64,000 nucleotides of DNA from an uncultured Pirellulales bacterium. GTDB taxonomy: Bacteria > Planctomycetota > Phycisphaerae > Sedimentisphaerales > Anaerobacaceae. Under the pieces are notes generated by a model, which was given only the letters and a program-made list of their open reading frames with translations, had not been told where the DNA came from and searched no databases. Positions 16,395 through 61,465 of this stretch are shown piece by piece (the stretch's first letter is position 1; each line of letters starts with the position of its first letter). The stretch is from NCBI GenBank assembly GCA_964575615.1, contig CAZNSM010000002.1, positions 5,862-69,861 on the forward strand, written 5' to 3'. The translations under genes were made by a program, and so were the position numbers.

Positions 16395-17843
<1,449 letters not shown>

Positions 17844-29236: not shown

Positions 29237-29316
29237 CGCCAGGAGACCTCGGGCCGAAGGATGGAGCGGCCGGCAAGCCTGTTGGGCAGTTTGTAGAAGA
29301 CGACTGTGAGGCAACT

Positions 29317-30504: not shown

Positions 30505-30619
30505 CCCGGACCATCCCGAGGGGGGATTCACGGTCGTTTTGCAGACGGCGGTGTCTGATTTCTATCCAGACGATCCGTCCCGATGGGCCTTGCGCCAAAT
30601 AAACCCCGTTTCACCACAC

Positions 30620-30635
30620 CGGCACGCCGTTTGCA
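30620..30635 (+). promoter_or_regulatory. Sigma-54-type promoter CGGCACGCCGTTTGCA upstream of the modification island
   Basis: GG-N10-GC spacing is exact, and the sequence matches the consensus at all positions but the first. It lies 52 nt upstream of the ATG at 30687. It nearly duplicates the element at 61449-61465. Confidence 0.55.
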
Positions 30636-30686
30636 CACATCGGCCAAGAGTCGCGTTCTACTCCGTTGTCCAAAAGGAGCACACAT

Positions 30687-32198
30687 ATGACCGCACAAAC
30701 CGTTGTGAATGCCCACCAGCGTGGGCTGGAACTGGCCGAGGCCGGAAAATACGAAGCCGCATTGAGCTGCATCCGCGAGCACTTGCGGGCGGCTCCGCAG
30801 GATGCCCAGGCCCTGAACGATGCCGGGGCGATCCTCCATTGCCTGGGGCGCTCCGAGGATGCCGTTGCGCATCTGGTCAAGGCGCATGCGCTGCGCCCGG
30901 ACAGCGGGGAGATCGTCTGGAATCTCGTCGAGGCCTATCTTGCGGCGGGCATGGCCGGTGAGGCCGCCTCCCTGCTCGAGACGATGGAGCGGATGGACAT
31001 CCTCAATATCGAGGTGCTCAACCGCGTCGCCACGATGTTGCTCGATCAGGGCCAGAAAGGTCCGGCTGTCGAGGTCCTGCTGCGGTCGCGTCACCGATGG
31101 CCCGAACAGGACGTGCTCAATCCGATTCTGAGCGTGATCCAGAGCAAACGTCCGAAAATCGCGTTGTTCCGGGTTGGCCAGGGCGTGGACGGCGCTCTGG
31201 CGGAGGCATGGGCATTCGTCCAGGAGCGGTTCCAGACGGAGTTTTGCACGGGCCGCACGCCCGAGGAGCTGTCGCGTCTGATGCAGTGGTGTGACATCGC
31301 CTGGTTCGACGGCGGTGGTCCGATCGTGGCCGAGGCGCTGCAATCGCCGGCGCCGGGCAAGATCCTCGTGAGTCTGCGCTGCTCGGACGTCCGCGACGAC
31401 TGGGCGCGGCGGGTTCGATGGGAGAATGTGGACATCGTGATTCAGATTGGCAGCTCGGCCGTCGAGGAGGCGCTGCTGAGGTGGGTGCCCGACATTCGGA
31501 ATCGGACGCGCCTGGCGGTCGTGCCCCACGGAATCGACCCGACGCGATACGCGTTTCAGCAGCGCGGTCGCGGCAGGAACCTCGCGTGCATGGGCCGGCT
31601 GTCGATGGAATCGAATCCGGCTTTTCTCCTCCAGTGCATGCAGAAGCTGCACTACCTCGACGGAAGTTATCGGCTGTTCTTCTGTGGCGATTTCGAGAAT
31701 CCCATGCTCGAACAATACACGCACCACATGGTTCAGACGCTCGGCCTGACCGGCGTGGTGTCGTTCGATCCCTATGTGGGCGACCAGAACGCGTGGCTTG
31801 GCGACAAGCACTTCATCGTCTCCGGCGGCATCGGCGAGAGCCAGATCGAGTCGCTGCTGACGGGCATGGCCTGCGGGCTGAAGCCCATCGTGCACCATTT
31901 CGCCGGCGCCGACCGTCTGTTCCCGGCGCCGAGTCTGTTCCGCATCGCCGAGGAGTTTTGCGAATGTGCGCTCGGCGGCGAGTATGATCCGGCGGGCTAT
32001 CGGCGGTTCGTGGAAGAACGCTATCCGATTCGCAGGCAACTGCACCAGGTGGGCGGCATCTTGAATCAGCTCGAAAGCGAGATTGACGCCCGGCGTCTCG
32101 GCGTCGGTTCGTGTCGTTCCGGCGGGATTTGCGACGTTCCGACGCCGCGTGGCCGTCGACCCGGTGTGGAAGCCCCCGCCAGCCCGTTCACCCTGTAA
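30687..32198 (+). CDS. TPR + GT-B (group-1-like) glycosyltransferase, FlmG-like architecture (about 503 aa)
   Basis: N-terminal TPR repeats ('AQALNDAGAILHCLGRSEDAVAHLVKAHALRPD') are followed by a glycosyltransferase-like C-terminal half ('FIVSGGIGESQIESLLTGMACGLKPIV'). AAGGAG RBS. Confidence 0.75.
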   Translation: MTAQTVVNAHQRGLELAEAGKYEAALSCIREHLRAAPQDAQALNDAGAILHCLGRSEDAVAHLVKAHALRPDSGEIVWNLVEAYLAAGMAGEAASLLETMERMDILNIEVLNRVATMLLDQGQKGPAVEVLLRSRHRWPEQDVLNPILSVIQSKRPKIALFRVGQGVDGALAEAWAFVQERFQTEFCTGRTPEELSRLMQWCDIAWFDGGGPIVAEALQSPAPGKILVSLRCSDVRDDWARRVRWENVDIVIQIGSSAVEEALLRWVPDIRNRTRLAVVPHGIDPTRYAFQQRGRGRNLACMGRLSMESNPAFLLQCMQKLHYLDGSYRLFFCGDFENPMLEQYTHHMVQTLGLTGVVSFDPYVGDQNAWLGDKHFIVSGGIGESQIESLLTGMACGLKPIVHHFAGADRLFPAPSLFRIAEEFCECALGGEYDPAGYRRFVEERYPIRRQLHQVGGILNQLESEIDARRLGVGSCRSGGICDVPTPRGRRPGVEAPASPFTL

Positions 32199-32233
32199 TA
32201 CTGGCGCCATACGTGAGATTGAACACTCGTCCA

Positions 32234-33907
32234 ATGTCCACAGACCGTCAGGAGAATCTGTCGCAATCCTCCGCTCCGGACGGCCGCGATCGAAGCGGTC
32301 CTCTGGTCAGTGTGTTGCTGCCCACGTACAATCGGCGCCGCTATCTGCCCTACGCTCTGGCCAGCGCCGTGCGGCAGACCTATCGGAACCTGGAAATCTT
32401 CGTGGTCAACGACGGCGGCCACGACGTGCGTGACATTGTTGCATCCTTCGACGATCCGCGAATCCTCTTCATCGATCGGCGCGAGAACCGGGGCAAGCCC
32501 CATTCGCTCAACGAGGCGCTGGCCCGCGCTCGCGGCAAGTACGTCGCCTATCTCGATGATGACGACATCTACTATCCGAACCATGTGCAGGTGCTGGTCG
32601 AAGCGCTGGAGGGGCCGACCGATTGTCAGGTGGCCTACAGCGACCTGTACAAGACCTACTGTCGGGTGCTGTCCAACGGCGATCGGGAGATCCTGAGCAA
32701 GCACGTGGAAATCAGCCGGGATTTCGACCGTTTTCTGATGCTCTACTTCAACCATGCGTTGCACGTGTCCCTGATGCATCGCCGGGATCTGCTGGACCGG
32801 ACGGGTCTCTATAACGAGAATCTGAACATTCTGATCGATTGGGACATGACGCGCCGCCTGGCGTTCTTCTCGGACTTCCAGCACCTGCCCACGATTACGG
32901 GGGAGTTCTACAGTCCGATCGAGGAGTCGGACCGCATCTCGATTCAGCGCCGCAAGGACCCCCAGGAGTATCTGCGGAACGTGCTGGCCATCCGGACCAC
33001 GCACCCTCCGAAGCCGTGGGACAAGCTTGAGGAGCTGGCGATCATCCTGCTCGTCGACCGGCTGGACCGGCGCATCGCAGAAACGTGCGGGCGCCTCTGG
33101 CGGCACACATTCTATCCCTACCGGCTCTATATTCCGCTGTCGCCTCACGACATCGGGCGGCTGAACAGCGAGATGCCGAACATGGTCCTGGTTCCCGTCG
33201 ATCCCCAGAGTTCGGCGCAGCAGAAGGTGGATGCGGCGCTGCAACGGATCGAAAGCGCTTATGTGGCGATTGCGCCCGGCACTCTGCCGATCGAGGAGAT
33301 GTGGGTGGAGGATCCGCTCTACGTGTTGATTCACAGCGCGTCTGATCGGGAAGCGCTTCTGCTGGAGGGCGGTGGTGCAGGACTATGGGGCGCCGTGTTG
33401 AAAGAGGGCGATCTGCGGCAGGCCAGGCGGGCTCACCCTGGCTTGTCGGTGGAAGCCTCGCTGGCGGCCTGCGGCATCCGGGTGCGGCGTCCGCAGCCCG
33501 AAGAGCTGCCGTTTCAGTTCGACGAGTTGTTGCGGCAGGCGTGGCAGGCGGAGGCGGACGGCGATTGGCCGCTGGCGGCCCGGGCCTATGAGTATCTGGC
33601 CGCCCACCATCGCAATGAACTGTGGATGAAGTCTTTGGCGGCCGGCGCCCATTTCCACGCGGGCCATCACGCACAGGCCGCCCGGCTCAGTCGCCAGGTC
33701 AATCAGGTGCGATCGACCGTGGAGACCCTCCTGCTGGAGGCCAGGGTGTGCCGCCGGAAACGGAACTTCACAGACGCCATTGGATTGCTCGAACAAGCCG
33801 AGAGGGGACTTCAAGGTCATCTTCCGATACCTGCACGCACGCCGATGGTCTCAGCGCAAGGGTGGCAGGAAACTGGGGAAACGCAGACATGGATACGGCG
33901 CCAATGA
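32234..33907 (+). CDS. Family-2 glycosyltransferase with helical C-terminal domain (557 aa)
   Basis: 'VSVLLPTYNRRRYLPYALASAVRQTYRNLEIFVVNDGG' and 'YVAYLDDDDIYYPNH' are a classical GT2 N-terminus and a DxD motif. Confidence 0.85.
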   Translation: MSTDRQENLSQSSAPDGRDRSGPLVSVLLPTYNRRRYLPYALASAVRQTYRNLEIFVVNDGGHDVRDIVASFDDPRILFIDRRENRGKPHSLNEALARARGKYVAYLDDDDIYYPNHVQVLVEALEGPTDCQVAYSDLYKTYCRVLSNGDREILSKHVEISRDFDRFLMLYFNHALHVSLMHRRDLLDRTGLYNENLNILIDWDMTRRLAFFSDFQHLPTITGEFYSPIEESDRISIQRRKDPQEYLRNVLAIRTTHPPKPWDKLEELAIILLVDRLDRRIAETCGRLWRHTFYPYRLYIPLSPHDIGRLNSEMPNMVLVPVDPQSSAQQKVDAALQRIESAYVAIAPGTLPIEEMWVEDPLYVLIHSASDREALLLEGGGAGLWGAVLKEGDLRQARRAHPGLSVEASLAACGIRVRRPQPEELPFQFDELLRQAWQAEADGDWPLAARAYEYLAAHHRNELWMKSLAAGAHFHAGHHAQAARLSRQVNQVRSTVETLLLEARVCRRKRNFTDAIGLLEQAERGLQGHLPIPARTPMVSAQGWQETGETQTWIRRQ

Positions 33908-34506
33908 ACGAGGTCGAAAAACGCAAGAGAACCCAGCACTATGAAGTGCTGCGCGAGCTGGGCGACTGCTACACGTCGGTGGGCAACTACGCGCAAGCCC
34001 AGCGCTGCTACGAGAAAGCGGCGTCGATCGGGCCGGATGAGCCGGGACCTTATGTGGGTCTGGGGGCGGCCGCCCTTCAGAGAGGCCAGTGCGAGGATGC
34101 CGAGATTGCGTTTCGCGTCGCCTGCCGGCTGGATCCCAACTGCGCCAAGGCCTACACCGGTCTGGCCATGGTCGCACAGCAGCGCCGAGAATACGCGCCG
34201 GCCTTCGATCTTTACATGAAGTCGCTCGAACTGGACAGCGACAACATCACCGCACTGCTCGGATTGTTCCAGGTCTCCTGTGAGATGGGTTCCTTCGCCA
34301 AAGTGATCTACTACCTGGAGGTCTACCTGCACATGCACCCGGGAGACGCCTCGGTGATGTTCGCGCTGGCGGCATTGTACCTCAAGGACGGGCGTCCGGG
34401 AGAGTCGCGGGAAATGCTGCTCAATCTGCTGGCGCTGGAGCCGACGAATGAAGATGCGACGAACCTGCTGGAAGAAGTGGACCACAGCCTGGCGGGAGCA
34501 CGATAG
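33889..34506 (+). CDS. TPR-repeat protein (about 205 aa)
   Basis: Several canonical TPRs ('LGDCYTSVGNYAQAQRCYEKAASIGPDEP', 'AKAYTGLAMVAQQRREYAPAFDLYMKSLELD'). An alternative ATG at 33904 forms an ATGA overlap with the GT2 stop. Confidence 0.75.
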   Translation: MDTAPMNEVEKRKRTQHYEVLRELGDCYTSVGNYAQAQRCYEKAASIGPDEPGPYVGLGAAALQRGQCEDAEIAFRVACRLDPNCAKAYTGLAMVAQQRREYAPAFDLYMKSLELDSDNITALLGLFQVSCEMGSFAKVIYYLEVYLHMHPGDASVMFALAALYLKDGRPGESREMLLNLLALEPTNEDATNLLEEVDHSLAGAR

Positions 34507-34509
34507 CCC

Positions 34510-34908
34510 ATGAGCGCCAGCGACGACCACACGAAGCGTGCACCCGACCGGATGGCAGAGCGGCTGGACGAGTTGAGCCGCCTGCTGCGGGGGCAGATCG
34601 ACGGGGTGCGCGAAGGCCAGTTCGATCGGGTCGACCGGCTGGCGGCCCGCGCCGAGACGCTGGTGGCCGGAATGATCCAGGACCGGCAGCGTACGGGGAC
34701 GCTGGCCGAATCGCAAAGAGCGCATCTGGCGCGGTTATACGAGGAGCTGGCCCTCGCCCTGCGAGCCGAACGAGGCGACGTACAGGCGAAGCTCAGGCAG
34801 CTCAGACAGGTCAAGAGGGCCATCGCCGCCTATGGACGAAAGGCCCGGACAGGATCTCCGTCGCCGGCGACCTTCGGCGGCGGGGCACGTATTAAGGTCA
34901 CCAAGTAA
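34510..34908 (+). CDS. Helical hypothetical protein (132 aa), possibly chaperone-like
   Basis: Predicted to be all-helical and Arg/Leu/Gln-rich ('AKLRQLRQVKRAIAAY'). No family assigned. A loose resemblance to FlgN/FliT-type proteins is only an impression. Confidence 0.55.
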   Translation: MSASDDHTKRAPDRMAERLDELSRLLRGQIDGVREGQFDRVDRLAARAETLVAGMIQDRQRTGTLAESQRAHLARLYEELALALRAERGDVQAKLRQLRQVKRAIAAYGRKARTGSPSPATFGGGARIKVTK

Positions 34909-34920
34909 GGAGCGTTCCCG

Positions 34921-36345
34921 ATGAACCTATCTTGTGTCGGTCTCGGAAAGCTGGGCCTTTGCTCGGCGGCGTGCTTCGCCGGCAAGGGACATCACGTCAT
35001 CGGCGTGGATTCCAGCGCCGAGCACATGGAGGCACTCGCCAGCGGACGATGTCCCGTCGACGAGACTGGACTGCCGGCGCTGCTGGACGGGTGCCGAGCG
35101 CGCATGGAGTTCACCCCCGACTACGGGTATGCCGTGAAGCACAGCGACATCACGCTGATCACGGTGCCGACCCCGAGCGACTCGAACGGCCGATTCTCCA
35201 ACGCGTATGTCGAAGCGGTTCTCGATCGCATCGCCGGGGGCCTGAAGGCCAAGAAGTCGTTTCACGTGGTGGCCCTGGTCTCGACGGTCATGCCGACGAC
35301 GTGTGAACACGTCTTCGTGCCCATCCTCGAGAAGCTCACGGGCAAGGTGTGCGGGCGGGACTTCGGGTTCGTCTATAATCCCGAGTTCGTCGCGCTGGGT
35401 TCGGTGATTCACGACTTCCTCCATCCGGACATGCTGCTCATCGGCGCCTCCGACGAGCGGTCGGCGCAACTGTGCCGGGAGCTGTACTCGTCCGTGGTGG
35501 AGAACGATCCGTACTATGCGGTCATGAACCTGACCAACGCGGAGATCACCAAGCTGAGCCTCAACTGCTACGTGACCATGAAGATCAGTTTCGCCAACGA
35601 GTTGGCGTCGATCTGCGAACGGATTCCGGGCGCGGATGTCGACGTGGTGACCACGGCGGTCGGGTCCGATACGCGCGTGGGCCGTCGGTACCTCAAGGGC
35701 GGGCTGGGCTTCGGCGGTCCGTGTTTTCCTCGCGACAACCTGGCGTTTCAGCGATGTGCCGAGGATGCCGGGGCGGATGCGAACCTGAGCCCGCGCGTCG
35801 TCAAGGTCAATGGCGAAGTAGTCAACCGGCTGTTCACCATGATCAGCGAGCACGCCCGGCCCGGATCGAGCGTGGCCTTGCTGGGCCTTTCCTACAAGCC
35901 GGGCACGCACATCATCGAAGAGTCTCAGTCGGTCATGCTCGCAGCGCAGCTCCTCAAGGCGGGCTACGTGGTCCGCATGCACGACCCCAAGGCGCTGGGA
36001 AGCGTCCGCGAGGCGCTTCAGGGACGGGGCATCTACTGCGAAGATCCGTACGACGCCGTCTCCGGGGCCGGCGTGGTGGTGATGCTGACGAACTGGCCGC
36101 AATACAACGAACTGGACGTCGCCCGATTGGAGGAAAGGGCCGGCACGGCGCCGCTGATGATCGATTGCTGGAGAATCTATCGGAACGCCACGCTGAAGAA
36201 ATTCACCTACCGCGCGTTCGGGATGGTGACCGCACCTGCAGGGGGAATCGCACATGACAGTCGCGCAGACATTCTCTACCAGGACCGTCGAGGACGTGCG
36301 CCGGTACTGGAACGCACGTCCGTGCAACATCCGGCACTCACCTAA
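34921..36345 (+). CDS. UDP-glucose/GDP-mannose dehydrogenase-family nucleotide-sugar dehydrogenase (474 aa)
   Basis: N-terminal Rossmann motif 'VGLGKLGLCSAACFA', a central catalytic-Cys region ('GGLGFGGPCFPRD') and the C-terminal UDP-binding domain. AAGGAG RBS. The last 37 or so aa overlap the next gene. Confidence 0.9.
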   Translation: MNLSCVGLGKLGLCSAACFAGKGHHVIGVDSSAEHMEALASGRCPVDETGLPALLDGCRARMEFTPDYGYAVKHSDITLITVPTPSDSNGRFSNAYVEAVLDRIAGGLKAKKSFHVVALVSTVMPTTCEHVFVPILEKLTGKVCGRDFGFVYNPEFVALGSVIHDFLHPDMLLIGASDERSAQLCRELYSSVVENDPYYAVMNLTNAEITKLSLNCYVTMKISFANELASICERIPGADVDVVTTAVGSDTRVGRRYLKGGLGFGGPCFPRDNLAFQRCAEDAGADANLSPRVVKVNGEVVNRLFTMISEHARPGSSVALLGLSYKPGTHIIEESQSVMLAAQLLKAGYVVRMHDPKALGSVREALQGRGIYCEDPYDAVSGAGVVVMLTNWPQYNELDVARLEERAGTAPLMIDCWRIYRNATLKKFTYRAFGMVTAPAGGIAHDSRADILYQDRRGRAPVLERTSVQHPALT

Positions 36346-37102
36346 GCCGGTCGGCACGCGGGCGTACTTCGACGAGGTGGAAGCCCGCAAGTATTTCGTG
36401 GAGCCGCACATCCCGGCCTTCGCCCAGTTCGATCGGTGGGCGGGCAAGAAGGTGCTGGAAATCGGTTGCGGCATCGGGACCGATACGATGGGCTTCGCCC
36501 GGGCGGGCGCCCAAGTCACGGCGGTGGACCTGTCCGATGCGTCGCTGGCGGTGGCGAAGGAACGCGCATCGGTCTTCGGTCTGGCCGATCGCATCCGGTT
36601 CTATCAGGCGAACGTCGAGCGGCTCAGCGAGTCCGTCCCGGTCGAGGAATACGACCTGGTCTACTCCTTCGGCGTCATTCATCACACGCCGCACCCGCAG
36701 GACGCCATCCGCGAGATTCGCAAGTACATGGGACCGCAGAGCGTGTTCAAGATGATGGTGTACCATCGCCATTCCTGGAAGGTGCTCTGGATCCTGCTGA
36801 AGTTCGGGAAAGGGGCCTTCTGGAAGCTCGACGAGCTGATTGCCCGCCACTCCGAGGCCCAGACGGGTTGCCCGGTGACGTACAGCTACTCCCGCCGGAC
36901 CGTGCGCGACCTGTTGCAGGGATTCCGCGTCCGCGCCGCCAGGGTGGACCACATCTTCCCCTACTCGATCCCGGAATACCGGCAGCACAAATACAGGAAG
37001 GTGTGGTACTTCCGCATCCTGCCCGCATGGGCATTTCGCCGGCTGGAACAGAGCCTGGGTTGGCATCTCCTGGTGGATGCCGCGCCGGCAGACAGGTTGT
37101 GA
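36254..37102 (+). CDS. Class I SAM-dependent methyltransferase (282 aa)
   Basis: Motif I 'VLEIGCGIGTDTMGFARAGAQVTAVDLS', followed by 'YDLVYSFGVIHHTP'. Confidence 0.85.
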   Translation: MTVAQTFSTRTVEDVRRYWNARPCNIRHSPKPVGTRAYFDEVEARKYFVEPHIPAFAQFDRWAGKKVLEIGCGIGTDTMGFARAGAQVTAVDLSDASLAVAKERASVFGLADRIRFYQANVERLSESVPVEEYDLVYSFGVIHHTPHPQDAIREIRKYMGPQSVFKMMVYHRHSWKVLWILLKFGKGAFWKLDELIARHSEAQTGCPVTYSYSRRTVRDLLQGFRVRAARVDHIFPYSIPEYRQHKYRKVWYFRILPAWAFRRLEQSLGWHLLVDAAPADRL

Positions 37103-37104
37103 CC

Positions 37105-43170: not shown

Positions 43171-43223
43171 CGAACGAGGACGCACACCCGGGACAGCGCG
43201 ATGCGAAGGCCCGAGAAGTGAGG

Positions 43224-49200: not shown

Positions 49201-52200
49201 GATCGCAACCCGACGCCGGACGTCGGCCACGAGTCACCGTGGTGCTGGCGTGCCGCGATGGGGAGCGACACCTGCCGGAATGTCTGGACAGCATTCTGAA
49301 GCAGACCCTGTCGGAGTGGGAGCTGTTCTTGCTCGACGACGGCAGCACGGACGGCACGCGGCAGGTCATGGAAAAGTACGCCGCCCGCGATGCGCGCATC
49401 CGGCCCTTCTACTTCGACCAGAGCGCCGGGCCGTACATTCGCCGCAATTTCGCCATCGAGCGCGCCGGCGCTCCTTTCGTCGTGATCCAGGACGCCGACG
49501 ACCTCATGTGCCCCGAGAAGCTGGAGCGGCTGTGGTTGGCCATCACCCAGGACGACCGTCTTGGCGTGGTCGGCTCGTTCTACCACATGTTTCTCGATGA
49601 GTACCAGGGGGCGGAACACAGCGATACGGTCGTCCTGAAGACGACGCACGAGCAGATCCTGGAAGAATACCGAAACGCGGCCGTCTGTGATTTCTGCTGG
49701 CATGGCTCGGCCATCATCCGCAAGCGCCTCTTTGAGGATATCGGGCCCTACGACGAGAACCCCTTCGCCTCGGACTCCTTCTGGCTGGCCAAGGTCGCGG
49801 AGTATGCGTGCCGAAGCGAGGCGGTTCGCTTGATGAATCTGCCGGAGGTGCTGACGCTGCGACGGATGCACGTCAGCTCTCAAACGGGCAGCCTGCCGGC
49901 GTTCGATCCACGCAGTCGGCGGGCGCACTTCAAGGAGCACCGCCGCCAGAAACTGTCGGAATTGATTCGAACGCTCCATGCCGACCCTCGTGCCGATATC
50001 AAGGCGGTCCTGCGTCGCACCGTTTGTGGCGACTTCATCAAGCAGAACGCACGGCTCTTCCCCGAATGGGAAAACGCGCCTTTGACCGGTCCGATCGTCC
50101 AGGGTTTCCTCGGACGGATTTACAGTCACTTCACGAAGGGGCAGTTCGTTCAATGCCTCTGGACGAGCCGGATCGTGGAACAACTGGTGACGGGCATCGC
50201 GCAGAACGTGCGAAGCTACGAACTGATCAAGGGTCTGGCCTATTTCGCACTCGGGTACCCTTGCGAGAGTCGGGAATGCCTGGACCGGGAATGTGACATT
50301 CATGGGACCCCTGTGGCGATGCAGTTCCGCGCGGACTGGCTCGATCGGGGCAACGGTCTCCAGCCGCGAGCCCAGCGTTTGAGCCTCATCGAAAGGGCCC
50401 TCTTTCATCCGGACGGCAGACGAACGGAGCCGGTCGAGTGTCTTCCGGACAGCGGCGCCAAAGGACCGACGGGCGTGTCGGTTATCGTGTCTCTCGCGGG
50501 GGATGCGGCGTCGTGGGCCGATGTGATCGCTTCTTTCGACGCACAGACGGAGAAGGACTTTGAGGTCATCGCACTGGTTCCAGCGCCTTTGGCGGAGGAC
50601 CTGGCGCGTCGGGCCGCACACGTCGGCTTTCGTCTCTCCGTCCTCGGCACGAGGGAGGGAGCGAGCCCGTGTCGCTACAGGAATGCGGCAGCCGAGCAGG
50701 CGCAGGGCCGCTGCCTTGCGTTCCTGGGAGAGTACGTGGCGCCGGACCGTGACTTCGTCGCACGTGTACAGCAGCATTTCCAGGAGAAGGACCTCTGCGG
50801 CCTGCGAGGCCGGATTCTCTGTGAGGGCCGTTCCTCCACTCCCCTCCGATTCGACTTGGGGCCGGACCAGATGGCCGCTGCATGGGACATCGACGAATTG
50901 TGTGTCTTTGACAGAGAGACCTTCTTCCGCCTCGGCGGGTTCCCCGCCGTGCCGTTCGATCACGGGGCGATTCACCTCTCGCATCGGGCGTACGCCGATC
51001 TGCGTGACGGTCGGCGTCGTATTCTCTATTGCCCCGATGTGCTCTGTCGCTACCGTGGACCGGAGGAGGCGCGGGTTGGTCTCGTAGATCGGTTCGCCAT
51101 GGAGAATCGCTTCGCGGTCAGTCAAGCGCTGCTCGCGGTCGATCTCCAGGAGGACCAGGAACGTCATGTATGGGGATTCCGCGAGTTCCTGGAGGGGTTG
51201 TACTGGCGAGACACCGGTACGCCGGAAGAGTGCTTCCGACGGTTTCTCCGGACCAGCCTGTTTTTCCGGGAGCGCGACCCTCGCCTGGCAAGCGAGTGGG
51301 CGCGGATGGCGCTGCGGCTGCGTCCGGACTGCATTGAGGCCCGTTGTGTCCTGGGTTCTGCGCAGGCGATGCTGGGCCAGCCCGGTGACGCATGCGTTCT
51401 TCTCGAAACGTGCCTTGAGCCGTTGGAGGAATTGATCGCCTTGGAGCGGCTGGATCGCGCGCGAAGCGAGTTCAGAGGCTATGCCGATATCGTGGAATGT
51501 TACGTTGCCAGTTGTACGCTTCTGGCCGAGTGCTATATGAAGACGGGCCGGTACGATCGCGTGGGCGTCACCTATGCGCGACTGCTTGGGAACCCCCATG
51601 TCCATCTCGATCCGGCTCAGCGGCAGAACATGGAACGCATACGAGACCGCCTGGTTTCGTCGCACCGGGCCGAGATCGTGCCCGTGCCCTCGCATGGGGC
51701 CGGATGCGGACGCGATGTGGCGCCGGTGAATTCTGCTCCGCCACGCAGGATGGAGCCGCAAAGCCCGGCGGTGCCATCGACAGATGGGTCAGGCCGGGAT
51801 CGTGCGTCGGAAAACCCGTGCGTTGCGAAGCTGACGGAGCTGGAACGCATGTATCGATCGATGCCGCCAGGATCGGCGTCCCGACATGCGGTGGCCAGCC
51901 GGCTCGCCAAACTGTTCCGCAAGGCCGGCGCGACCGACAAGAGCAGGATGCTGGAGATGGAAGCCCGGGCCATCGGCAACACCATGGCCTACGAAGAGGC
52001 CCGGCGGACCAAACCGGACGTCTGTTCCCATCGCCCCGTGACCGTGGAGTTCAACGTGATCACCCGGTGCAACGGCGGCTGCGTCATGTGCAGCTACGGC
52101 ACAGACGGCGAGATTATGGACCTGGCACAGTTCCAGCATCTCGCGGACGAGTGGCTGCCGGCCGCCCGCGATGCCCATCTGATCGGCGGCGAGGTCCTGC

Positions 52201-55200
52201 TGCACCCGCAGTTCTACGAGCTCTGCGAATACGCCAATCGTTTTGGCGTGTGCCTCGGTATGACGACCAACCTGTCGACGCTGGCGGGACGGAGGGCAGA
52301 GGCGATCACGAGGTTCTTCCACACGGTTCGGGTCTCTGTGGATGGGGCCACCCGACAAACCTATGAATCCATACGTCGGCGTCTGAGCTTCGAGCGACTC
52401 TGTCAGAACCTGGCGGTTCTGGCGGACATCAAGCGAAGCAGGCCGGAACTCGAGATGGAACTGGCCTTTGTCGCGATGCGCCAGAATATTGCGGAATTGC
52501 CCGACGTGATCGAAATGGCCGCCCGGTACGCCTTCGATAGCGTCGCCGTCAATTTCGTCCATGTGTACAATGCTCAGACCTTGGACGATTCGCTGCTGTT
52601 TCACCGAGAACTGGCGAACAAGCACCTCGACCTGGCCCGGGCGGCAGCGGCCCGACTCGGCCTGGCTCTGGACATTCCCGACAACTTCGACCTGAGCCGG
52701 ACGCCCTACGTGGCCTCGCAACAACTGACGGAAGGCCACAGACAATGCACCCGGCCCTGGCAGCGCGTTCGACTGCTCATCCATGGCGAGGTCATTCCCT
52801 GCTGTCATCTCCACGACCTTCCGATGGGCAATGCGCTGGCGGAGTCCTTTGAGGGGGTGTGGAATGGCGAGAAGTTCAGAGGACTGCGACAGGCCATCCG
52901 GGACAGTCGCGATGAAATGCCCGAGCGATGTAAGCACTGCCGCATACTCATGCGAGGAGCCGATTCCAACGACGCGATGATGCACGTCAATCCGGCTCTT
53001 GTGCCCGAACTGAAGCAGCGCCTCCAGACGCGGGCCAGTACGCCGGCGGTGGCTGTATCCACTGCGTCCGCGCCGCGTGTATCCGTGCTGGCAGTCAGCG
53101 TGGTGTTGGCGTGCCGCAATGGGGCCGAGCACCTGCCGGAATGTCTGGACAGCGTCTTGGCGCAGACCCTGTCGGAGTGGGAATTGCTGCTTCTCGACGA
53201 CGGGAGCACCGACAGTACGCGCGGGATCATGGAGGCGTACGCCGCCCGCGATGCGCGCATCCGGCCCTTCTACTTCGACGAAAGCGCCGGACCGTACGTC
53301 CGTCGCAATTTCGCCATCCGACAGGCCCGTGCACCGTTTGTCTCGATTCAGGACGCTGACGACATCATGTGTCCGGACAAGCTCCGGCGTCTGTATGACG
53401 CAATCGGCGGCGACGAGCGTCTCGCGGTCGTGGGTTCGTTCTACCGGAAGTTCCTGGATGATTTCACCGGCATCGAATCCACGGAGGCCGTGACGTTGCC
53501 GGCAACGCACGAAGAGATTCTAAAGGCATACGACGCCCGGTCCATGTGGGATTTCTCCTGGCACGGCTCGGCGATCGTCCGGCGGATGCTGTTCGAGGAG
53601 ATCGGGCTGTACGACGAGAACCCCTTCGGCGCCGACTCGTTCTGGCTGGCCAAGGTAGCCGAATACGCCCGCCGCACGGAGCGTATCCGGTTGTGCAATA
53701 TTCCGGAGTCTCTCACTCTGCGGCGGGTGCACAGCGAATCGCAGGTGGGGCAACTGCCGGCGATGGACCCCCGCAGCCGACGAACGCGCTATTCGCAGTA
53801 CTGCCTCAGCCGGCTCCAGGAGGTGGTCAACACGGTGGCGCGCGACCCCTCGATGGATGTCGCCCGGGCGCTGCGCGAATGCACCTGCGCCGACTTCCTC
53901 CCGCGCTTCGGCGCGCAGATCGCCGAATGGGAGCGCGCGCCGATGGACGAAGGGATCGTGGTTCGCTTCCTTCAGCGTGCCACAGAGTGCTTCCGAATGC
54001 AGCGTTACGTCAGTTGCGTGCAGACCCTGTCCGCGTTGGAAGGCATGGACCCGGAACTGCCGCATCGCCTCGCCAATGTCGATCTGGTCCGCGCGCTAGC
54101 GCTCTATGGGCTGGGGCAGAAAGAGCGGTGTCAGATTTATCTGCGCAGGGAGATGGCCCATCACGACAACCCGGTCGCCCGGCAGTTTTACGAGGAGGCC
54201 TTCACGCGAGGCGTGCCGATCGACGTGCACCAGTGGGGCGCTGAGCATGTGGACGCCGTCGCATTGCGAATCACGGATGCAAGGCTTTCGGCCCCGTCTG
54301 CGCCGGCAGGGCCCGGCGTCGAGACGGCGGCGGGCGAGTCGCCCAAGGTCACGGTGATCACCGCGTGCCGGAATGCCGCTCGGTTCCTCCCGGAGTGCCT
54401 GGACAGCATTCTGGCCCAAACGCTGGGCCAGTGGGAGCTGTTTCTGCTCGACGATGCCAGCACGGACGACACCCGCCGGATCATCGAGGAATACGCGCGA
54501 CGGGATGGACGCATCCATGCCCATTTCTTCGACGACCAGAAGGGACCGTACGTCCGGCGGAATTTTGCCATCGAGCGGGCCCGCGCGGATTTCATCGTGA
54601 TTCACGATGCCGATGACCTGATGTGCTCCACCAAGCTGGAGACTCTGTACGACGAGATCAGCCGGGACGACCGGCTGGCGATGGTGGGCTCGAACTACCG
54701 TACATTCCTCGAAGCGTATCGCGGTCCGGAATACAGCGAATGCAGCCAACTGCCGTTGAAGGACGACGAGATTCTGACCCGGTTCAAATCCTGGCAGCAC
54801 GGGATGAGTCACGGATCGGCGATCATCCGCAAGACCCTCTTCGCCGAGATCGGTCTCTACGACGAAAATCCATTCTCCGCCGACTCCTTCTGGTCGGCGA
54901 AACTGGCTTTGTATGCCGAGGCCGGCCGGCCCATCTTCGTGAAGAATGTGCCCGAGAGCCTGACCCTGATCCGTCTGCACGCGATGAACCACACGCGGGT
55001 CGTCTCGACACTCGATCCGCGCAACCGAAGGACGCGGTACCGGCAATACTGCGAAGGCCGGCTGTGGCGCATCCGTGAGCGGCTGAAGTCGGAACCCGGC
55101 ATGGATATCGGACGGGAACTGCGCCAGTGTGCCTGCGGCGACTTCCTGACCCGTTTCCAGGCCCAGATCCTCGCCTGGGAGAGTGAGCCTTTGAACGATC

Positions 55201-55577
55201 GAGTGGTCCCGGAGTATCTGGACATCGCCTTGTTGCTGTTCAACAGGGGCTGTCACGTCAGTTGCGTCAATGTCCTCAACAACGTGGAGGCATTCGATCC
55301 GGGCGTGGCCGCTCGTGTGGCCGGCTATGATCTGCTTCGAGGTCTGGCGTTCTTCGCGCTGCGGATGAACGGGCCAGCGCGGCTGTGTTTGGATCGCGAG
55401 ATTCGTCGTCACGGCACGGCCGCGGCCCGCCGATTTGTCGCAGATGCCTTCGAGTCCACCAAGCCGGTCGATCTGGCGTCCTGGTGTCAGGAGTGCGGGG
55501 AGCGATTCGGTCTGCGCCTGGTGGAGGCCGGACCGCCAAAATCGCGGCAGACGACGCTTTCGTCCGTCGGGGTCTGA
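43224..55577 (+). CDS. Giant multidomain glycosyltransferase/methyltransferase/radical-SAM polyprotein (about 4,117 aa)
   Basis: Uninterrupted 12.35-kb ORF with recognisable enzyme-like motifs along its whole length. These are two 'YLSVV..(S/T)RNDDHGGN' GT-A-like modules, an MT-like module, 'IFAMPKPFEGH', 'VMDDDIKYPPDY' and 'FFKVDDDFLLHP' GT-like modules, three 'ACR(D/N).....LPECLDS.L.QTL..WEL.LLDD.STD' GT2 modules, one divergent GT2-like module, a 'CNGGCVMC' radical-SAM/SPASM domain, and TPR-like spacers. Confidence 0.85.
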   Translation: MHAVNDTPYLSVVATSRNDDHGGNLVLRMQLFVQCLMAQAKRHRLKTELILVEWNPPADRPRLREALRFDAHHPFCSVRIVEVPAAIHARYRHAQALPVYQMIAKNVGIRRARGRFVLATNVDIVFSDPLFARLAKQDLQSGRCYRSIRHDVDNALTSGMPVEAVLDYCQSHLIRVNQRECSLNVRDGSRHVVYRPGVSEAQLGHPKLFTNGCGDFTLLAQEDWSRLRGYAELDMFSFHLDSLFLHCAYYAGIAEHVFPDDHVHYHIEHQEGWTPEIHRDRTLDARLDKGQIDRLDNASLRRLLDRMRNEGKPLIFNDANWGLANDHLAEERVTIADWERTEPQEAASAGKAADTAWAKAHPTYLSVVVTTRNDDHGGNHLHRFQVFLDHLADMCARHRLAAELIVVEWNPDPSRPSLVQAMRWPDPSRLASRVIVVPPEIHRSYRNSDKFPLFQMIAKNVGIRRARGQYVLATNMDVLFSDELAAWLARRELREDCVYRIDRHDVGQTAIPSGLSRDEVLEFCARHVVRVHGQHGTCAWGDPPRVGDPDRLHSHACGDFTLMARTQWERLKGYPEFPLWSIYLDGLLLHAARAVGLEQKILREPLRLYHVEHSLGWAVNQDTVKERPSLDYHKEYQPLCAEMLRTHKALDVNSENWGLKDKALEECEPGARGLPPASMTCTAGERPDGLSDKIVRSWIDRISSTENRLYYRDQSAQTLIALARYARTMNPTVVVELGTLAGLSLRTWIAAAERARIYAVDLSFQTLQETGRVLPLDLSRVTLLEQDILKTDFASLWTAQDRVIFFVDAHDLPGVPIMEHVLTRALPALPDGSLVVVDDLWFSAERLTRDNAKAFLDSRVVAEIDELQCFEGYYAPYHEGGSFMGFAEVIPLLKFVNAHGILLACEKGGKQVSFVWRSALREAVRSRGAGSTEPAECYGSVLHNPLTSVPVPAPLREMMDGLAQEYRQKKIVPVAERLARLLEQYPNDPGLSYALAVCLARCRELTRARDILGRVVRDGADPRCRRLFDDLVARVGPGGTASSRVPSSPPQDGEGLTIFAMPKPFEGHIATIQKNAIRSWARLRPAPQIILFGDEPGTRQIAQEVGACHVPDIERNEFGTPLVNKLFEEAQKRASHRIVAYVNADIILFESFVKGVREVQSRLAKFLLIGQRWDLTVLDEIDFGRPDWPSMLQAQMQERAMLHGECGLDYFVFPKGVYPEIPPFAIGRIAWDNWLVMAPHRAGVPVVDGTEFITAVHQDHDYGHVAGGRRGAWSGAEASRNRALAGKVDDSAYASGAEWVLRRDGRLAESRPREPVFGSTAYREYRHAWLAKEARRLMALDRMELAAAKWEETLPILERLLIAARRKGSSPDSDGVRLAECYATACVSLAQCHMQLGCHDRVVADYTRLLETSLFEIPQKQRDDIQRVCDRLRERLPQSKDPLVHSPVDRQKRSAPAETVQPSRCCGAARPGLGEKRLALIVSIPDRADDLRRLLVDLEDQVDDIRILLNEYETVPEDLYRFAKVTRVEASPKGELYASGAWDLLMPDDEGYVLVMDDDIKYPPDYADTMIAKIEEHQRRAVVVVHGMDFRPPFADFVVDRNMYHFETACRQDRVVHAGGVGTLVFHTSTIRPRSRDFPNPNFRDLWFAVLAAKHEVPIVCIAHDAGWLLAKRMRGRQLWRMAYEQGQRDLKNEVFRTRLLPLLNIDVLQTHATDHRFTIFCFTNGRSTFDYCVRSLTDSWDQHEKTVVLRDMDFFEATAQCLEDCETPYFFKVDDDFLLHPQAIAYMRKKVLEYPCPEELGIYYCHLWEDWTSRVRQSIKVYRAEALRRIGGFQANDQGKVDEATKAALERAGFKVVEDPSVVALHACGTWEEQLEYERLWSAMADAPYKKPTHDAMKAYCGTKSLDTQYAMRLGTLESINRQLNTPFHRFLVESAADSPSSALPESEVSDSSAHVAEDTAAGGSLLHPSSRPRRQRVRDRLLRAEPTARRGSQPDAGRRPRVTVVLACRDGERHLPECLDSILKQTLSEWELFLLDDGSTDGTRQVMEKYAARDARIRPFYFDQSAGPYIRRNFAIERAGAPFVVIQDADDLMCPEKLERLWLAITQDDRLGVVGSFYHMFLDEYQGAEHSDTVVLKTTHEQILEEYRNAAVCDFCWHGSAIIRKRLFEDIGPYDENPFASDSFWLAKVAEYACRSEAVRLMNLPEVLTLRRMHVSSQTGSLPAFDPRSRRAHFKEHRRQKLSELIRTLHADPRADIKAVLRRTVCGDFIKQNARLFPEWENAPLTGPIVQGFLGRIYSHFTKGQFVQCLWTSRIVEQLVTGIAQNVRSYELIKGLAYFALGYPCESRECLDRECDIHGTPVAMQFRADWLDRGNGLQPRAQRLSLIERALFHPDGRRTEPVECLPDSGAKGPTGVSVIVSLAGDAASWADVIASFDAQTEKDFEVIALVPAPLAEDLARRAAHVGFRLSVLGTREGASPCRYRNAAAEQAQGRCLAFLGEYVAPDRDFVARVQQHFQEKDLCGLRGRILCEGRSSTPLRFDLGPDQMAAAWDIDELCVFDRETFFRLGGFPAVPFDHGAIHLSHRAYADLRDGRRRILYCPDVLCRYRGPEEARVGLVDRFAMENRFAVSQALLAVDLQEDQERHVWGFREFLEGLYWRDTGTPEECFRRFLRTSLFFRERDPRLASEWARMALRLRPDCIEARCVLGSAQAMLGQPGDACVLLETCLEPLEELIALERLDRARSEFRGYADIVECYVASCTLLAECYMKTGRYDRVGVTYARLLGNPHVHLDPAQRQNMERIRDRLVSSHRAEIVPVPSHGAGCGRDVAPVNSAPPRRMEPQSPAVPSTDGSGRDRASENPCVAKLTELERMYRSMPPGSASRHAVASRLAKLFRKAGATDKSRMLEMEARAIGNTMAYEEARRTKPDVCSHRPVTVEFNVITRCNGGCVMCSYGTDGEIMDLAQFQHLADEWLPAARDAHLIGGEVLLHPQFYELCEYANRFGVCLGMTTNLSTLAGRRAEAITRFFHTVRVSVDGATRQTYESIRRRLSFERLCQNLAVLADIKRSRPELEMELAFVAMRQNIAELPDVIEMAARYAFDSVAVNFVHVYNAQTLDDSLLFHRELANKHLDLARAAAARLGLALDIPDNFDLSRTPYVASQQLTEGHRQCTRPWQRVRLLIHGEVIPCCHLHDLPMGNALAESFEGVWNGEKFRGLRQAIRDSRDEMPERCKHCRILMRGADSNDAMMHVNPALVPELKQRLQTRASTPAVAVSTASAPRVSVLAVSVVLACRNGAEHLPECLDSVLAQTLSEWELLLLDDGSTDSTRGIMEAYAARDARIRPFYFDESAGPYVRRNFAIRQARAPFVSIQDADDIMCPDKLRRLYDAIGGDERLAVVGSFYRKFLDDFTGIESTEAVTLPATHEEILKAYDARSMWDFSWHGSAIVRRMLFEEIGLYDENPFGADSFWLAKVAEYARRTERIRLCNIPESLTLRRVHSESQVGQLPAMDPRSRRTRYSQYCLSRLQEVVNTVARDPSMDVARALRECTCADFLPRFGAQIAEWERAPMDEGIVVRFLQRATECFRMQRYVSCVQTLSALEGMDPELPHRLANVDLVRALALYGLGQKERCQIYLRREMAHHDNPVARQFYEEAFTRGVPIDVHQWGAEHVDAVALRITDARLSAPSAPAGPGVETAAGESPKVTVITACRNAARFLPECLDSILAQTLGQWELFLLDDASTDDTRRIIEEYARRDGRIHAHFFDDQKGPYVRRNFAIERARADFIVIHDADDLMCSTKLETLYDEISRDDRLAMVGSNYRTFLEAYRGPEYSECSQLPLKDDEILTRFKSWQHGMSHGSAIIRKTLFAEIGLYDENPFSADSFWSAKLALYAEAGRPIFVKNVPESLTLIRLHAMNHTRVVSTLDPRNRRTRYRQYCEGRLWRIRERLKSEPGMDIGRELRQCACGDFLTRFQAQILAWESEPLNDRVVPEYLDIALLLFNRGCHVSCVNVLNNVEAFDPGVAARVAGYDLLRGLAFFALRMNGPARLCLDREIRRHGTAAARRFVADAFESTKPVDLASWCQECGERFGLRLVEAGPPKSRQTTLSSVGV
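43245..45240 (+). repeat. Tandem duplication of a GT-A-like module of about 330 aa inside the giant ORF (copy 1 about 43245-44290, copy 2 about 44309-45240)
   Basis: Collinear protein similarity ('YLSVVATSRNDDHGGNLVLRMQLF...LILVEWNP' vs 'YLSVVVTTRNDDHGGNHLHRFQVF...LIVVEWNP'; 'YQMIAKNVGIRRARGRFVLATNVDIVFSD' vs 'FQMIAKNVGIRRARGQYVLATNMDVLFSD'). A 23-nt identical run, cagatgatcgccaagaacgtggg, is shared. Confidence 0.8.
49230..50460 (+). repeat. GT2 + helical-tail module, copy 1 of 3 (inside giant ORF)
   Basis: Paralogous to 53090-54300 and 54344-55574. It shares a 43-nt identical run with copy 2 (49376-49418 = 53237-53279). Confidence 0.8.
52030..52960 (+). other. Radical-SAM/SPASM domain embedded in the giant ORF
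   Basis: 'VEFNVITRCNGGCVMCSYG' is a CxxxCxxC cluster. It is followed by 'IGGEVLLHP' and the tail 'CTRPWQRVRLLIHGEVIPCCHLHDLPMGNALAESFEGVW...CKHCRI'. Confidence 0.8.
53090..54300 (+). repeat. GT2 + helical-tail module, copy 2 of 3
   Basis: 'VVLACRNGAEHLPECLDSVLAQTLSEWELLLLDDGSTDSTRGIMEAYAARDARIRPFYFDESAGPYVRRNFAI...IQDADDIMCP' is collinear with copy 1 over about 400 aa. Confidence 0.8.
54344..55574 (+). repeat. GT2 + helical-tail module, copy 3 of 3 (C-terminus of giant ORF)
   Basis: 'VTVITACRNAARFLPECLDSILAQTLGQWELFLLDDASTDDTRRIIEEYARRDGRIHAHFFDDQKGPYVRRNFAIERA...IHDADDLMCS'. It sits directly in tandem with copy 2. Confidence 0.8.
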
Positions 55578-55703
55578 AAAAACGGATCAGCGGCTTTAGG
55601 ACGATGCGAGTCCGAACGATAACACTATCGGGGTCGATCGTTCCGACAGCCCTGGGGATTTCTGTGCGCCGCCGGGTCGGCGGCCAATGAAGGGTCGATA
55701 ATC

Positions 55704-61448: not shown

Positions 61449-61465
61449 TGCAAACGGTGTGCCGG
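61449..61465 (-). promoter_or_regulatory. Sigma-54-type promoter CGGCACACCGTTTGCA upstream of fliOPQR-flhB
   Basis: The reverse complement of tgcaaacggtgtgccgg has exact GG-N10-GC spacing. It differs by 1 nt from the element at 30620-30635. Confidence 0.5.

Follow-up and report, generated by a model that had tools for sequence, protein, structure and literature searches.

Genomic context of the island

We analysed a 64,000-nucleotide stretch of DNA (contig CAZNSM010000002.1 of assembly GCA_964575615.1, positions 5,862 to 69,861), referred to here as the window, from an uncultured member of the Sedimentisphaerales (Phycisphaerae, Planctomycetota). The window has a GC content of about 63% and is a flagellar supercluster apart from one island of genes, which lies between flgL and fliD. 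An initial annotation, made from the letters of the window, had described this island as a flagellar modification locus. As set out below, the most likely function of the island is to attach a complex sugar chain to a flagellar protein.

On the plus strand, the island is preceded by flgD, flgE, a PilZ-domain gene, flgF, flgG, flgA, flgH, flgI, a FlgJ-like gene (127 aa), flgN, flgK and flgL, and is followed by fliD. The minus strand carries fliA, flhA, fliN, fliM, fliL, a gene for a response-regulator enhancer-binding protein (EBP), an 884-aa tetratricopeptide repeat (TPR) gene and a second EBP gene, while flhB, fliR, fliQ, fliP, fliO, two motB genes and motA, also on the minus strand, converge on fliD. 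The upstream boundary gene, flgL (29233..30504, plus strand, likely start 29317), encodes hook-associated protein 3 with Flagellin_N and Flagellin_C domains and passes the NCBIfam equivalog cutoff for TIGR02550 (166.5 bits vs. 127.2). The downstream boundary gene, fliD (55704..57731, plus strand), encodes the filament cap with FliD_N and FliD_C domains. A putative, weak terminator-like hairpin with a 6-bp stem and a T-rich tail was found by a consensus scan only at 30542..30557 on the plus strand, 3' of flgL.

The interval between the two boundary genes holds eleven genes, g1 to g11, at 30687–55577, and all credible ones lie on the plus strand when filtered by GC content at third codon positions (GC3). 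The gaps from flgL to g1 and onward to g11 are 182, 35, −4, 3, 12, −92, 2, −4, −16, −4 and 53 nt, and g11 is separated from fliD by 126 nt. The initial annotation had placed the end of flgL at 30504 and the start of fliD at 55704, and had described a tightly packed, all-plus-strand block with a list of products. These points were upheld by the TIGR02550 and FliD_N/FliD_C matches, by the GC3 filter with gaps of −92 to +53 nt within the block, and by Pfam domain content, respectively.

The closest genomes to the window are Sedimentisphaerales/Phycisphaerae metagenome-assembled genomes from anaerobic reactors, in which g1 is 97–98% identical (loci L012 and L013). The cultured Anaerobaca lacustris (L011) has the same layout with a g1 that is 76% identical. 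An identical FliD protein was present on 5 public contigs, and identical or near-identical copies of FliD and of the giant g11 proteins occur on JGI and Logan metagenome contigs.

Core genes

The first gene, g1 (30687–32198, plus strand), encodes a 503-aa protein with TPRs and a GT-B glycosyltransferase (GT) unit, as described by Pfam TPR and Glyco_trans_1_4 matches and by an AlphaFold2 (AF2) model. The model has a mean predicted local distance difference test score (pLDDT) of 79.7 and consists of a TPR superhelix at residues 1–153, followed by a two-lobed GT-B fold at residues 157–470. In a Foldseek search of this model, the top 30 matches were all SPINDLY (SPY) or O-GlcNAc transferase (OGT) structures, the latter bacterial and human, with E-values from 1.6e-11 to 2.5e-8. 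TM-scores to these folds were low (0.27–0.36), as the g1 domains are oriented differently to one another. Pfam gave no Glyco_transf_41 match to g1, the Glyco_trans_1_4 match (4.8e-5) fell below cutoff, and profile matches to OGT chains were restricted to the TPR part. For g1, 761 homologues were found; the genome scan returned Planctomycetota only, and none of the 120 homologues listed carried the name FlmG. From its predicted fold, which is OGT/SPINDLY-like, g1 is a candidate protein O-glycosyltransferase.

The near-core gene g2 (32234–33907, plus strand) encodes a 557-aa protein with an N-terminal GT2 domain of GT-A type and a C-terminal TPR-like region. The Glycos_transf_2 match (2e-27) covers residues 67–173 of the long open reading frame (ORF), and a weak ANAPC3/TPR match covers residues 488–562. 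Matches of g2 in the Protein Data Bank (PDB) were solved GT2 enzymes only, and phmmer returned no chain of GmaR (solved region 141–637) at E ≤ 0.01. The third gene, g3 (33904–34506, plus strand), encodes a stand-alone TPR protein of about 200 aa that matches Pfam TPR families. No other gene of the block is as well conserved, and g3 is translationally coupled to both g2 and g4. Its second-best NCBIfam match was the LcrH/SycD-type chaperone model of the type III secretion system (6.8e-17, below cutoff).

Directly after g3 follows g4 (34510–34908, plus strand), which encodes a helical protein of 132 aa. A g4-like ORF of 103–132 aa starts a few bases past the g3 stop codon in 72 loci of the comparison described below, and the family shares a conserved C-terminal RKGKKTIxxYR-like motif. 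Against Pfam, 15 of the 39 family members tested matched FliT (best 1.2e-6) and 12 of 39 matched FlgN. The initial annotation had called g4 a helical protein; its helical nature stands, and the description can be refined to weakly FliT-like on the basis of the family matches. A g4 profile gave only spurious helical matches among PDB sequences (e.g., ribosomal protein S20) and no solved FliT. We also asked whether g4 is a FlgN paralogue, but an hhalign comparison with the local FlgN family ruled this out (probability 0.2%). Judged by its profile matches, g4 may serve flagellar export as a chaperone or as a specificity factor.

Cargo genes and the giant protein

The genes downstream of g4 encode sugar-modifying, methyltransferase and radical S-adenosylmethionine (SAM) functions. 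The product of g5 (34921–36345, plus strand) is a nucleotide-sugar dehydrogenase with three UDPG_MGDP_dh domains that scored 345 bits on TIGR03026; its closest equivalog models are AglM and TuaD, and it is nearest to UDP-glucose 6-dehydrogenase. A domain match identified g6 (36254–37102, plus strand) as a class I SAM methyltransferase. The two genes overlap by 92 nt in different frames (36254–36345), an arrangement that is kept in L006 and in Anaerobaca lacustris. The double radical-SAM protein g7 (37105–39441, plus strand) matches Radical_SAM in two stretches, together with Fer4_12 and, in its second half, SPASM. A CX3CX2C motif can be read in the translation of each half, and all NCBIfam matches were below their cutoffs, with peptide and metalloenzyme maturases among the best neighbours. 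Next come g8 (39438–40277, plus strand), an FkbM-family methyltransferase (Methyltransf_21; TIGR01444 below cutoff), and g9 (40262–42334, plus strand), whose 690-aa product begins with a region that has no domain match and continues with TPRs and, at the C-terminus, a Methyltransf_24 domain by Pfam. The product of g10 (42331–43170, plus strand; start set by an ATGA overlap with g9) is FkbM-like and methyltransferase-like (Methyltransf_21, 3.6e-5).

The last gene, g11 (43224–55577, plus strand), spans 12.35 kb and encodes a modular protein of 4117 aa, which was dissected by Pfam, self-comparison, AF2 and comparison with orthologues. It begins with two so-called A-domains at residues 11–332 and 366–668 (window 43224–44220 and 44313–45220), which have a GT-A fold and lie outside Pfam. 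These are followed by a Methyltransf_24 domain (residues 737–841, Pfam), a TPR region (residues ~970–1030, Pfam) and a domain that we call '1050' (residues 1055–1300, window 46380–47120), which has no match in Pfam or among PDB sequences. Two GT-A-like regions lie at residues 1480–1700 and 2415–2650, and three internally repeated modules of GT2 plus an extension occupy residues 1995–2378, 3276–3688 and 3699–4104. A radical-SAM domain with SPASM (residues 2940–3245, Pfam) sits between them. In g11, about nine GT-A-like domains are thus fused to one methyltransferase domain and one radical-SAM/SPASM domain.

Pfam and PDB sequence-profile searches returned nothing for the A-domain (~320 aa). Its AF2 model (pLDDT 86.7) has a GT-A fold, with chondroitin polymerase, GalNAc-T and the heparosan synthase PmHS2 as the nearest structures, and its invariant motifs include RND, VEWNP, QMxAKNVGIRRA, CGDF and HxEH. 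Invariant motifs of the '1050' domain include PKxF, QxNA..SW, DYFxFxK, GRxxWDNW and HQxH. Domain types of g11 are duplicated and reordered between lineages: the '1050' domain is duplicated in L010 and L092, and the L092 giant contains three A-domains, three Methyltransf_24 (MT24) domains and two '1050' domains. A 98%-identical protein of 4117 aa is encoded on two contigs (NCBI and JGI), and a 4112-aa protein is 89% identical. The ratio of nonsynonymous to synonymous substitution (dN/dS) against the 89% orthologue was 0.20 overall and 0.13–0.29 in every 400-codon bin, GC3 was 0.79, and internal stop codons were absent. The low dN/dS along the whole length therefore indicates a functional gene.

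In total, the island encodes one UDP-glucose-6-dehydrogenase-like enzyme, five methyltransferase domains and three radical-SAM domains, two of which are accompanied by SPASM. The initial annotation had expected a chemistry rich in methylation and radical steps, which this count bears out. It had also noted that genes of nonulosonic acid pathways were missing. This holds for the island proteins, in none of which Pfam detected an aminotransferase, acetyltransferase, NeuB/PseI-like or Maf/MAF_flag10 domain, the rest of the genome being outside our view. No transmembrane segment was predicted in any of the 11 island proteins by an analysis that scores FlhA, FlhB and FliP strongly. Exporter, flippase, polymerase, initiating phosphotransferase and lipid-carrier enzyme domains were likewise absent from these 11 proteins. 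The lack of an island membrane segment favours cytoplasmic protein glycosylation.

Promoters and regulators

A sigma-54 −24/−12 element, CGGCACGCCGTTTGCA, is located at 30620–30635 on the plus strand, 52 nt 5' of the g1 ATG, which follows AAGGAG. Three further elements of this type are present in the window: TGGCACGACAATTGCA (18316..18331, plus strand) 5' of the flgD-flgE hook operon, CGGCACACCGTTTGCA (61449..61464, minus strand) 5' of fliOPQR-flhB, which equals the island element at 15 of 16 positions, and TGGCACGCCTGTTGCT (16135..16150, minus strand), a perfect element 5' of the 884-aa TPR gene. That TPR gene (13480–16134, minus strand) lies between the two EBP genes and has this element to itself. 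All four sites are intergenic and oriented toward flagellar operons. The core GGCAC-N5-TTGC was found four times in the window compared to 0.8 expected, a count that was reached in 1 of 100 shuffles.

The island element is conserved beyond the window. Upstream of g1 it was found in 69 of 77 species, in 47 as a strict match and in 22 as GGYAY-N5-YTGC, with GG and TTGC fixed and the spacer bases varying. Strict sites in 2.8 Mb of loci numbered 56, and 47 of these were the ones before g1, an enrichment of about 500-fold over background. The fliO site is kept in L007, L008 and L010. Similar clusters elsewhere carry sigma-54-like sites as well, and one of them adjoins an EBP gene. Sigma-54-like elements were also observed before cargo genes (L010 at 5446; L009 at 3920 and 19128; L092 at 8191 and 22534; L093 at 1712 and 3263), and some cargoes may have sigma-54 promoters of their own, to judge from these motifs.

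Two putative activators are encoded in the window. EBP 1 (10970..12502, minus strand) is of the response-regulator type, FlbD/FlgR-like by NCBIfam, with Response_reg, Sigma54_activat and HTH_8 domains. EBP 2 (16395..17843, minus strand) has Sigma54_activat and HTH_8 domains, also supported by NCBIfam, and no receiver domain was detected in it. The gene for sigma-28, fliA (5662..6483, minus strand), passes the subfamily cutoff of TIGR02479 FliA_WhiG (190.8 vs. 189.6) and contains Sigma70 r2, r3 and r4 regions. A sigma-28 (FliA)-like promoter, TTTAGG-N15-ACGATAA, lies at 55595..55622 on the plus strand, about 85 nt 5' of fliD, and is the sole such site in the window. By eye, about 15 of 19 distinct orthologous loci share a TTAAG-like/CGATAA-like pair some 85 nt before fliD, and the site is conserved across Phycisphaerae. 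The apparent −35 consensus of these sites is TTAAG, compared to TAAA in enterobacteria.

The shared sigma-54 element, set against the sigma-28-like site of fliD, groups the island with the hook and export-gate operons as sigma-54-class genes and assigns fliD to the late FliA class. The proposal of sigma-54 wiring in the initial annotation thus gains support from promoter motifs, namely the element in 69 of 77 species, the same type of element before flgD and fliO, and the two EBPs in the window. Its proposal of co-regulation is supported for the island, which has the sigma-54 site, and does not extend to fliD, which lies outside the sigma-54 unit behind its own sigma-28-like promoter.

Conservation across the Planctomycetota

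A scan with a g1 alignment of a genome collection holding one genome per species returned 80 loci, all from Planctomycetota. Gene presence was scored in a tblastn matrix, with g2 and g3 counted at >70% coverage. The order flgN-flgK-flgL-g1 was found in essentially all sampled loci (about 75–80 species), g2 in 67 of the 80 species and g3 in 71. Downstream genes were less widespread: g5 occurred in 31 loci and g6 in 25, and g7–g10 and most giant-protein domains were limited to the closest relatives. Over the 54 species having all six genes, median identities to the window proteins were 42% for FlgN, 54% for FlgK, 58% for FlgL, 51% for g1, 60% for g2 and 70% for g3. The accessory genes are therefore under no less constraint than the structural genes for hook-associated proteins.

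The length and content of the interval varied strongly. Where both ends were visible, flgL and fliD were separated by 2.7–11.4 kb; at least 43 species have an interval longer than ~11.5 kb, and that of the window is 25.2 kb. Four to six species have a whole interval of 2.7–4.3 kb, and the minimal loci L041, L049, L074 and L089 contain g1, g3 and g4 only, with g4 immediately upstream of fliD. The cargo of Anaerobaca lacustris is of a heptose type, with HldE-, GmhA- and GmhB-like genes, and those of L008 and L092 are of a dTDP-sugar/GHMP-kinase type. Because the core is kept and the cargo varies across species, the island is a conserved core (g1, usually g2, g3 and g4) plus one of the larger forms of a hypervariable cargo, and not a single unit. 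Comparison of the interval in related genomes, which the initial annotation had put forward as a check, thus gave a conserved flagellar position with variable content in the 80 species loci. Glycosylation islands typically show such polymorphism.

In five of the seven contexts read (L006, L007, L008, L010 and L092), the homologue of the giant gene is the last gene before fliD. A sixth context, L009 (ENA ERZ25039514 contig_5251, 4665–28880), contains a radical-SAM gene, a methyltransferase, a dehydrogenase, a 2959-aa multi-GT protein and several TPR-GT genes, one of which has a GT41 domain, along with sigma-54-like sites; flgL and fliD were undetected in the 29 kb read. Dehydrogenase and methyltransferase genes are orthologous across loci. 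We dropped the idea that radical SAM, dehydrogenase and methyltransferase form one conserved cassette, as no relation could be detected between the radical-SAM genes of L007, L009 and L010 and either g7 or the g11 domain.

Used in a metagenome scan, the A-domain gave at least 600 stretches, of which at least 570 were confirmed; loci L097–L176 are among those with the domain. The domain is thus widespread in metagenomes, with at least 570 loci, and is often found beside a UDP-sugar dehydrogenase and a g6-like methyltransferase. About 25 of the 30 listed A-domain loci that span 9 kb or more also contain a dehydrogenase like g5, a methyltransferase like g6, or both. The scan led us to reject the view that the giant-GT family is flagellum-specific everywhere.

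Absence of flagellin and FliS

No flagellin and no FliS was detected in the window plus 10 kb on each side (~84 kb), and no flagellin or fliS gene in any of the 80 related species loci. The absence of both from the window had been reported in the initial annotation and is extended here to ~84 kb. FlaG, FlgM, CsrA and FliW were also not found in the 10-kb flanks of the window; one flank carries fliK, flgB, flgC, fliE, fliF, fliG, fliH, fliI and fliJ, and the other carries unrelated genes. Searches by tblastn and phmmer with approximate termini of E. coli/Salmonella FliC found nothing in the window or loci, FlgL included. This search is insensitive, because the approximate queries miss even FlgL, and it counts only together with the Pfam scans.

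The initial annotation had stated that the island replaces flagellin and fliS between flgL and fliD. No replacement event is seen, since the flagellin-less layout occurs in all 80 species. A flgL–fliD interval without flagellin in all sampled relatives indicates that this arrangement is ancestral in the class.

Other genes and flanking regions

Several neighbouring features were observed along the window. A PilZ-domain protein of 427 aa is encoded at 20570–21853 (plus strand), between flgE and flgF and inside the hook/rod operon; it may be a flagellar regulator or brake that responds to cyclic di-GMP. Tandem motB paralogues (61585–62355 and 62352–63056, both minus strand) follow a single motA, an order that is kept in related contigs. 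Both paralogues have the MotB plug, and an OmpA domain was detectable in one only. Coiled-coil proteins are encoded at 3842–5147, downstream of fliA. The left edge of the flagellar cluster (1–5600) has a GC content of 56–59%, compared to 63% for the window, and contains paired DUF488 genes and a gene for a dual-OB (DuOB) protein. Beyond the left edge of the window (L094) lie HNH, VapBC and extra sigma-factor genes, and the low-GC stretch is possibly a defence or mobile region.

Function of the island and alternative explanations

We favour the reading that the flgL–fliD interval is a flagellar protein-glycosylation locus of the Phycisphaerae, made of a class-wide core and a hypervariable cargo and acting on an export substrate, and we give it a probability of roughly 0.65. 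It starts from observations made here on gene content, synteny and predicted folds, on the conservation of the promoter, on purifying selection and on the lack of membrane or export components. The suggestion of a flagellar modification island in the initial annotation is consequently strengthened by the synteny in about 75–80 species, by the giant homologues that abut fliD and by the absence of export genes. Flagellin is the most probable acceptor by analogy, because every characterised TPR-GT flagellar enzyme acts on flagellin.

From these data we infer a target protein, an order of steps, donor sugars and roles for g3 and g4. The sigma-54 promoter at 30620–30635, activated by the two EBPs, would transcribe g1–g11 alongside the hook and export-gate operons. 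Transcription of the island would precede that of the sigma-28 late genes, which would include fliD and presumably a flagellin gene encoded elsewhere in the genome. The soluble enzymes would then act in the cytoplasm on an unfolded export substrate, most likely flagellin. The TPR part of g1 would bind this substrate and g1 would add the first sugar to Ser/Thr, after which the chain would be extended by g2 and by the multi-GT protein g11. A UDP-uronic acid from g5 would be one of the donors. Methylation would come from g6, g8, g9, g10 and one g11 domain, and radical-SAM tailoring from g7 and one g11 domain. As adaptor or chaperone, g3 and g4 would hold the substrate (or FliD) or deliver it to the export gate.

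A bolder form of this scheme would make g1, g3 and g4 an obligatory, class-wide O-glycosylation and chaperone module in the place of flagellin and fliS. The module would feed g11 as a lipid-free, cytoplasmic 'assembly-line' megasynthase that builds a long, defined glycan on unfolded filament protein before export. The domain set (A-domain, '1050' and MT24) is shuffled and duplicated between lineages like synthase modules, and the g1/g3/g4 module may stand in for FliS-type chaperoning. We hold this form to be speculative and, taken as a whole, rather doubtful.

Several observations weigh against a flagellar glycosylation locus. The adjacency to a flagellin gene that is usual in pseudomonads and Campylobacter is missing here and in the related loci, and rpoN is not in the window. 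The window copy of g4 has a weak FliT score (E = 0.25). Two of the seven giant-gene contexts lack the fliD position, with L009 adjoining flaF and L093 having no flagellar gene in 28 kb. Among the 30 listed A-domain loci of at least 9 kb, fliD was present in two and flgK/flgL in none, and the A-domain locus L131 has dnaE, lexA and an NAD synthase gene as its neighbours. Part of the radical-SAM chemistry may also be misassigned as sugar tailoring, because SPASM-type radical-SAM enzymes often act on peptides. Since A-domain cargo is mostly without flagellar neighbours, the cargo chemistry is portable and not intrinsically flagellar. The flagellar tie of the cargo in the window is its core, its position and its promoter. 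The place of L009 beside flaF is also an independent link of this cargo to flagellin regulation.

The alternative that fares best accepts a flagellar locus with a different role: the acceptor would be FliD or FlgK/FlgL instead of flagellin, or g1, g3 and g4 would act mainly as chaperones or regulators that moonlight in the manner of GmaR. The core is flanked by flgL and fliD, flagellin is not encoded nearby, and g4 abuts fliD in minimal loci. In addition, g4 resembles FliT, the FliD chaperone of enterobacteria, and g3 scores on a chaperone model of the type III secretion system. Against this, FlmG, Maf-1 and GmaR all act on flagellin (PMC7591256; bioRxiv 10.1101/2023.12.03.569772; PMC9638930). 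About ten GT domains would suit an abundant surface filament protein better than a five-copy cap, and g2 has no match to the solved TPR/anti-repressor region of GmaR. We consider such a role unlikely.

A product outside the flagellum is a less likely explanation again. The island would then make a surface or secreted glycan, or serve general protein glycosylation, and would share only location and regulation with the flagellar cluster. The cargo cassette is indeed common outside flagellar contexts, and the L093 cluster is similar with no flagellar gene around it. However, the 11 genes encode no transmembrane protein, exporter, flippase or lipid-carrier transferase, the flgL–fliD position is kept in about 80 species with the promoter type of flagellar operons, and the core genes exceed the structural hook-associated proteins in conservation.

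It is quite improbable that the direct targets of the radical-SAM/SPASM proteins and methyltransferases are the backbone or side chains of the protein, as in the maturation of ribosomally synthesized and post-translationally modified peptides or in lysine methylation, with glycosylation as only a part of the function. SPASM in two of the three radical-SAM domains and the sub-cutoff peptide and metalloenzyme maturase neighbours of g7 would fit this explanation, and flagellin methylation is known in other bacteria. However, no small ORF resembling a precursor peptide was seen in the island in a search that was not exhaustive, and the g11 radical-SAM domain sits amid GT domains. Methyltransferases of the FkbM and Methyltransf_24 types are, moreover, common in sugar pathways. 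Finally, the giant ORF as an artefact of assembly or annotation (fused genes or a decaying pseudogene array), which its unusual length of 12.35 kb and internal repeats might suggest, is effectively refuted by the 4117- and 4112-aa orthologues in independent assemblies, the lack of stop codons, the GC3 of 0.79 and a dN/dS of 0.13–0.29 in all bins.

The interval has value beyond the window. The four-gene core with its built-in sigma-54 switch is a defined system across the class, in about 80 species, and the natural series of cargoes, from none (3 kb) to 25 kb, lends itself to studying the role of the core by itself and the way in which glycan complexity is gained. The giant protein could show how a complex glycan is assembled on a protein without a lipid carrier, and the A-domain is a widespread GT-A family outside Pfam coverage. 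These predictions are open to experiment because the cultured Anaerobaca lacustris has the same layout.

Comparison with known systems

Flagellar glycosylation is known almost wholly from Proteobacteria, Campylobacterota and Firmicutes, and mostly involves nonulosonic acids. No report of flagellar glycosylation in Planctomycetota, or of radical-SAM enzymes in flagellar glycosylation islands, came up in a literature search. We compare the island with characterised systems part by part, in terms of architecture, sequence and predicted fold.

Among solved folds, OGT and SPINDLY come closest to g1. In these GT41 enzymes, including TtOGT and XcOGT, the GT-B unit acts on protein Ser/Thr. The predicted g1 structure shares their TPR superhelix followed by GT-B (Foldseek E-values of 1e-11 to 1e-8), whereas g1 has no Glyco_transf_41 match, a much shorter TPR region and a differing domain orientation. 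In the FlmG enzymes of Caulobacter and Brevundimonas, the TPR part binds flagellin and the GT-B part sets the donor (PMC7591256; bioRxiv 10.1101/2022.03.25.485807). The likeness of g1 to FlmG is one of architecture, with an N-terminal TPR and a C-terminal GT-B. Expression before the late flagellar genes is proposed for both systems. FlmG transfers pseudaminic or legionaminic acid, whereas the island has no such pathway.

GmaR of Listeria combines GT2 and TPR parts and is both a flagellin O-GlcNAc transferase and an anti-repressor (PMC9638930). With an N-terminal GT2 domain, a following TPR-like helical region and a place in a flagellar locus, g2 is similar, but it has no sequence match to residues 141–637 and no sign of an anti-repressor domain or of a MogR-like partner. 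In the tripartite Maf-2/GlfM system of flagellin glycosylation, GlfM is the specificity or adaptor factor (bioRxiv 10.1101/2023.12.03.569772). Like GlfM, with which it is likened by description only, g4 is small, cis-encoded, all-helical and located beside flagellar GTs, so an adaptor role is possible. The island differs in having no Maf-type enzyme, and g4 matches FliT/FlgN models rather than the described GlfM.

For g11, K4 chondroitin polymerase and PmHS2 gave the best fold matches to the A-domain, and both are single polypeptides with multiple GT-A domains. They use UDP-uronic acids, and the UDP-glucose dehydrogenase-like g5 is encoded alongside g11. They have two GT domains, compared to about nine in g11, and make free or lipid-primed polysaccharides without methyltransferase, radical-SAM or TPR modules.

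The island as a whole is best compared with the flagellin glycosylation islands downstream of flgL in Pseudomonas, namely orfA–orfN of a-type P. aeruginosa and fgt1/fgt2 of P. syringae. Both have a cluster of GT and sugar-tailoring genes right after flgL, polymorphic content and cytoplasmic enzymes, with no lipid-carrier or export step. Unlike the Pseudomonas islands, the planctomycete island has fliD downstream with no adjacent flagellin gene. It is further set apart by a class-wide core with the chaperone-like pair g3/g4, a conserved sigma-54 promoter of its own, radical-SAM domains, and a cargo that is fused into a 4117-aa multi-GT protein.

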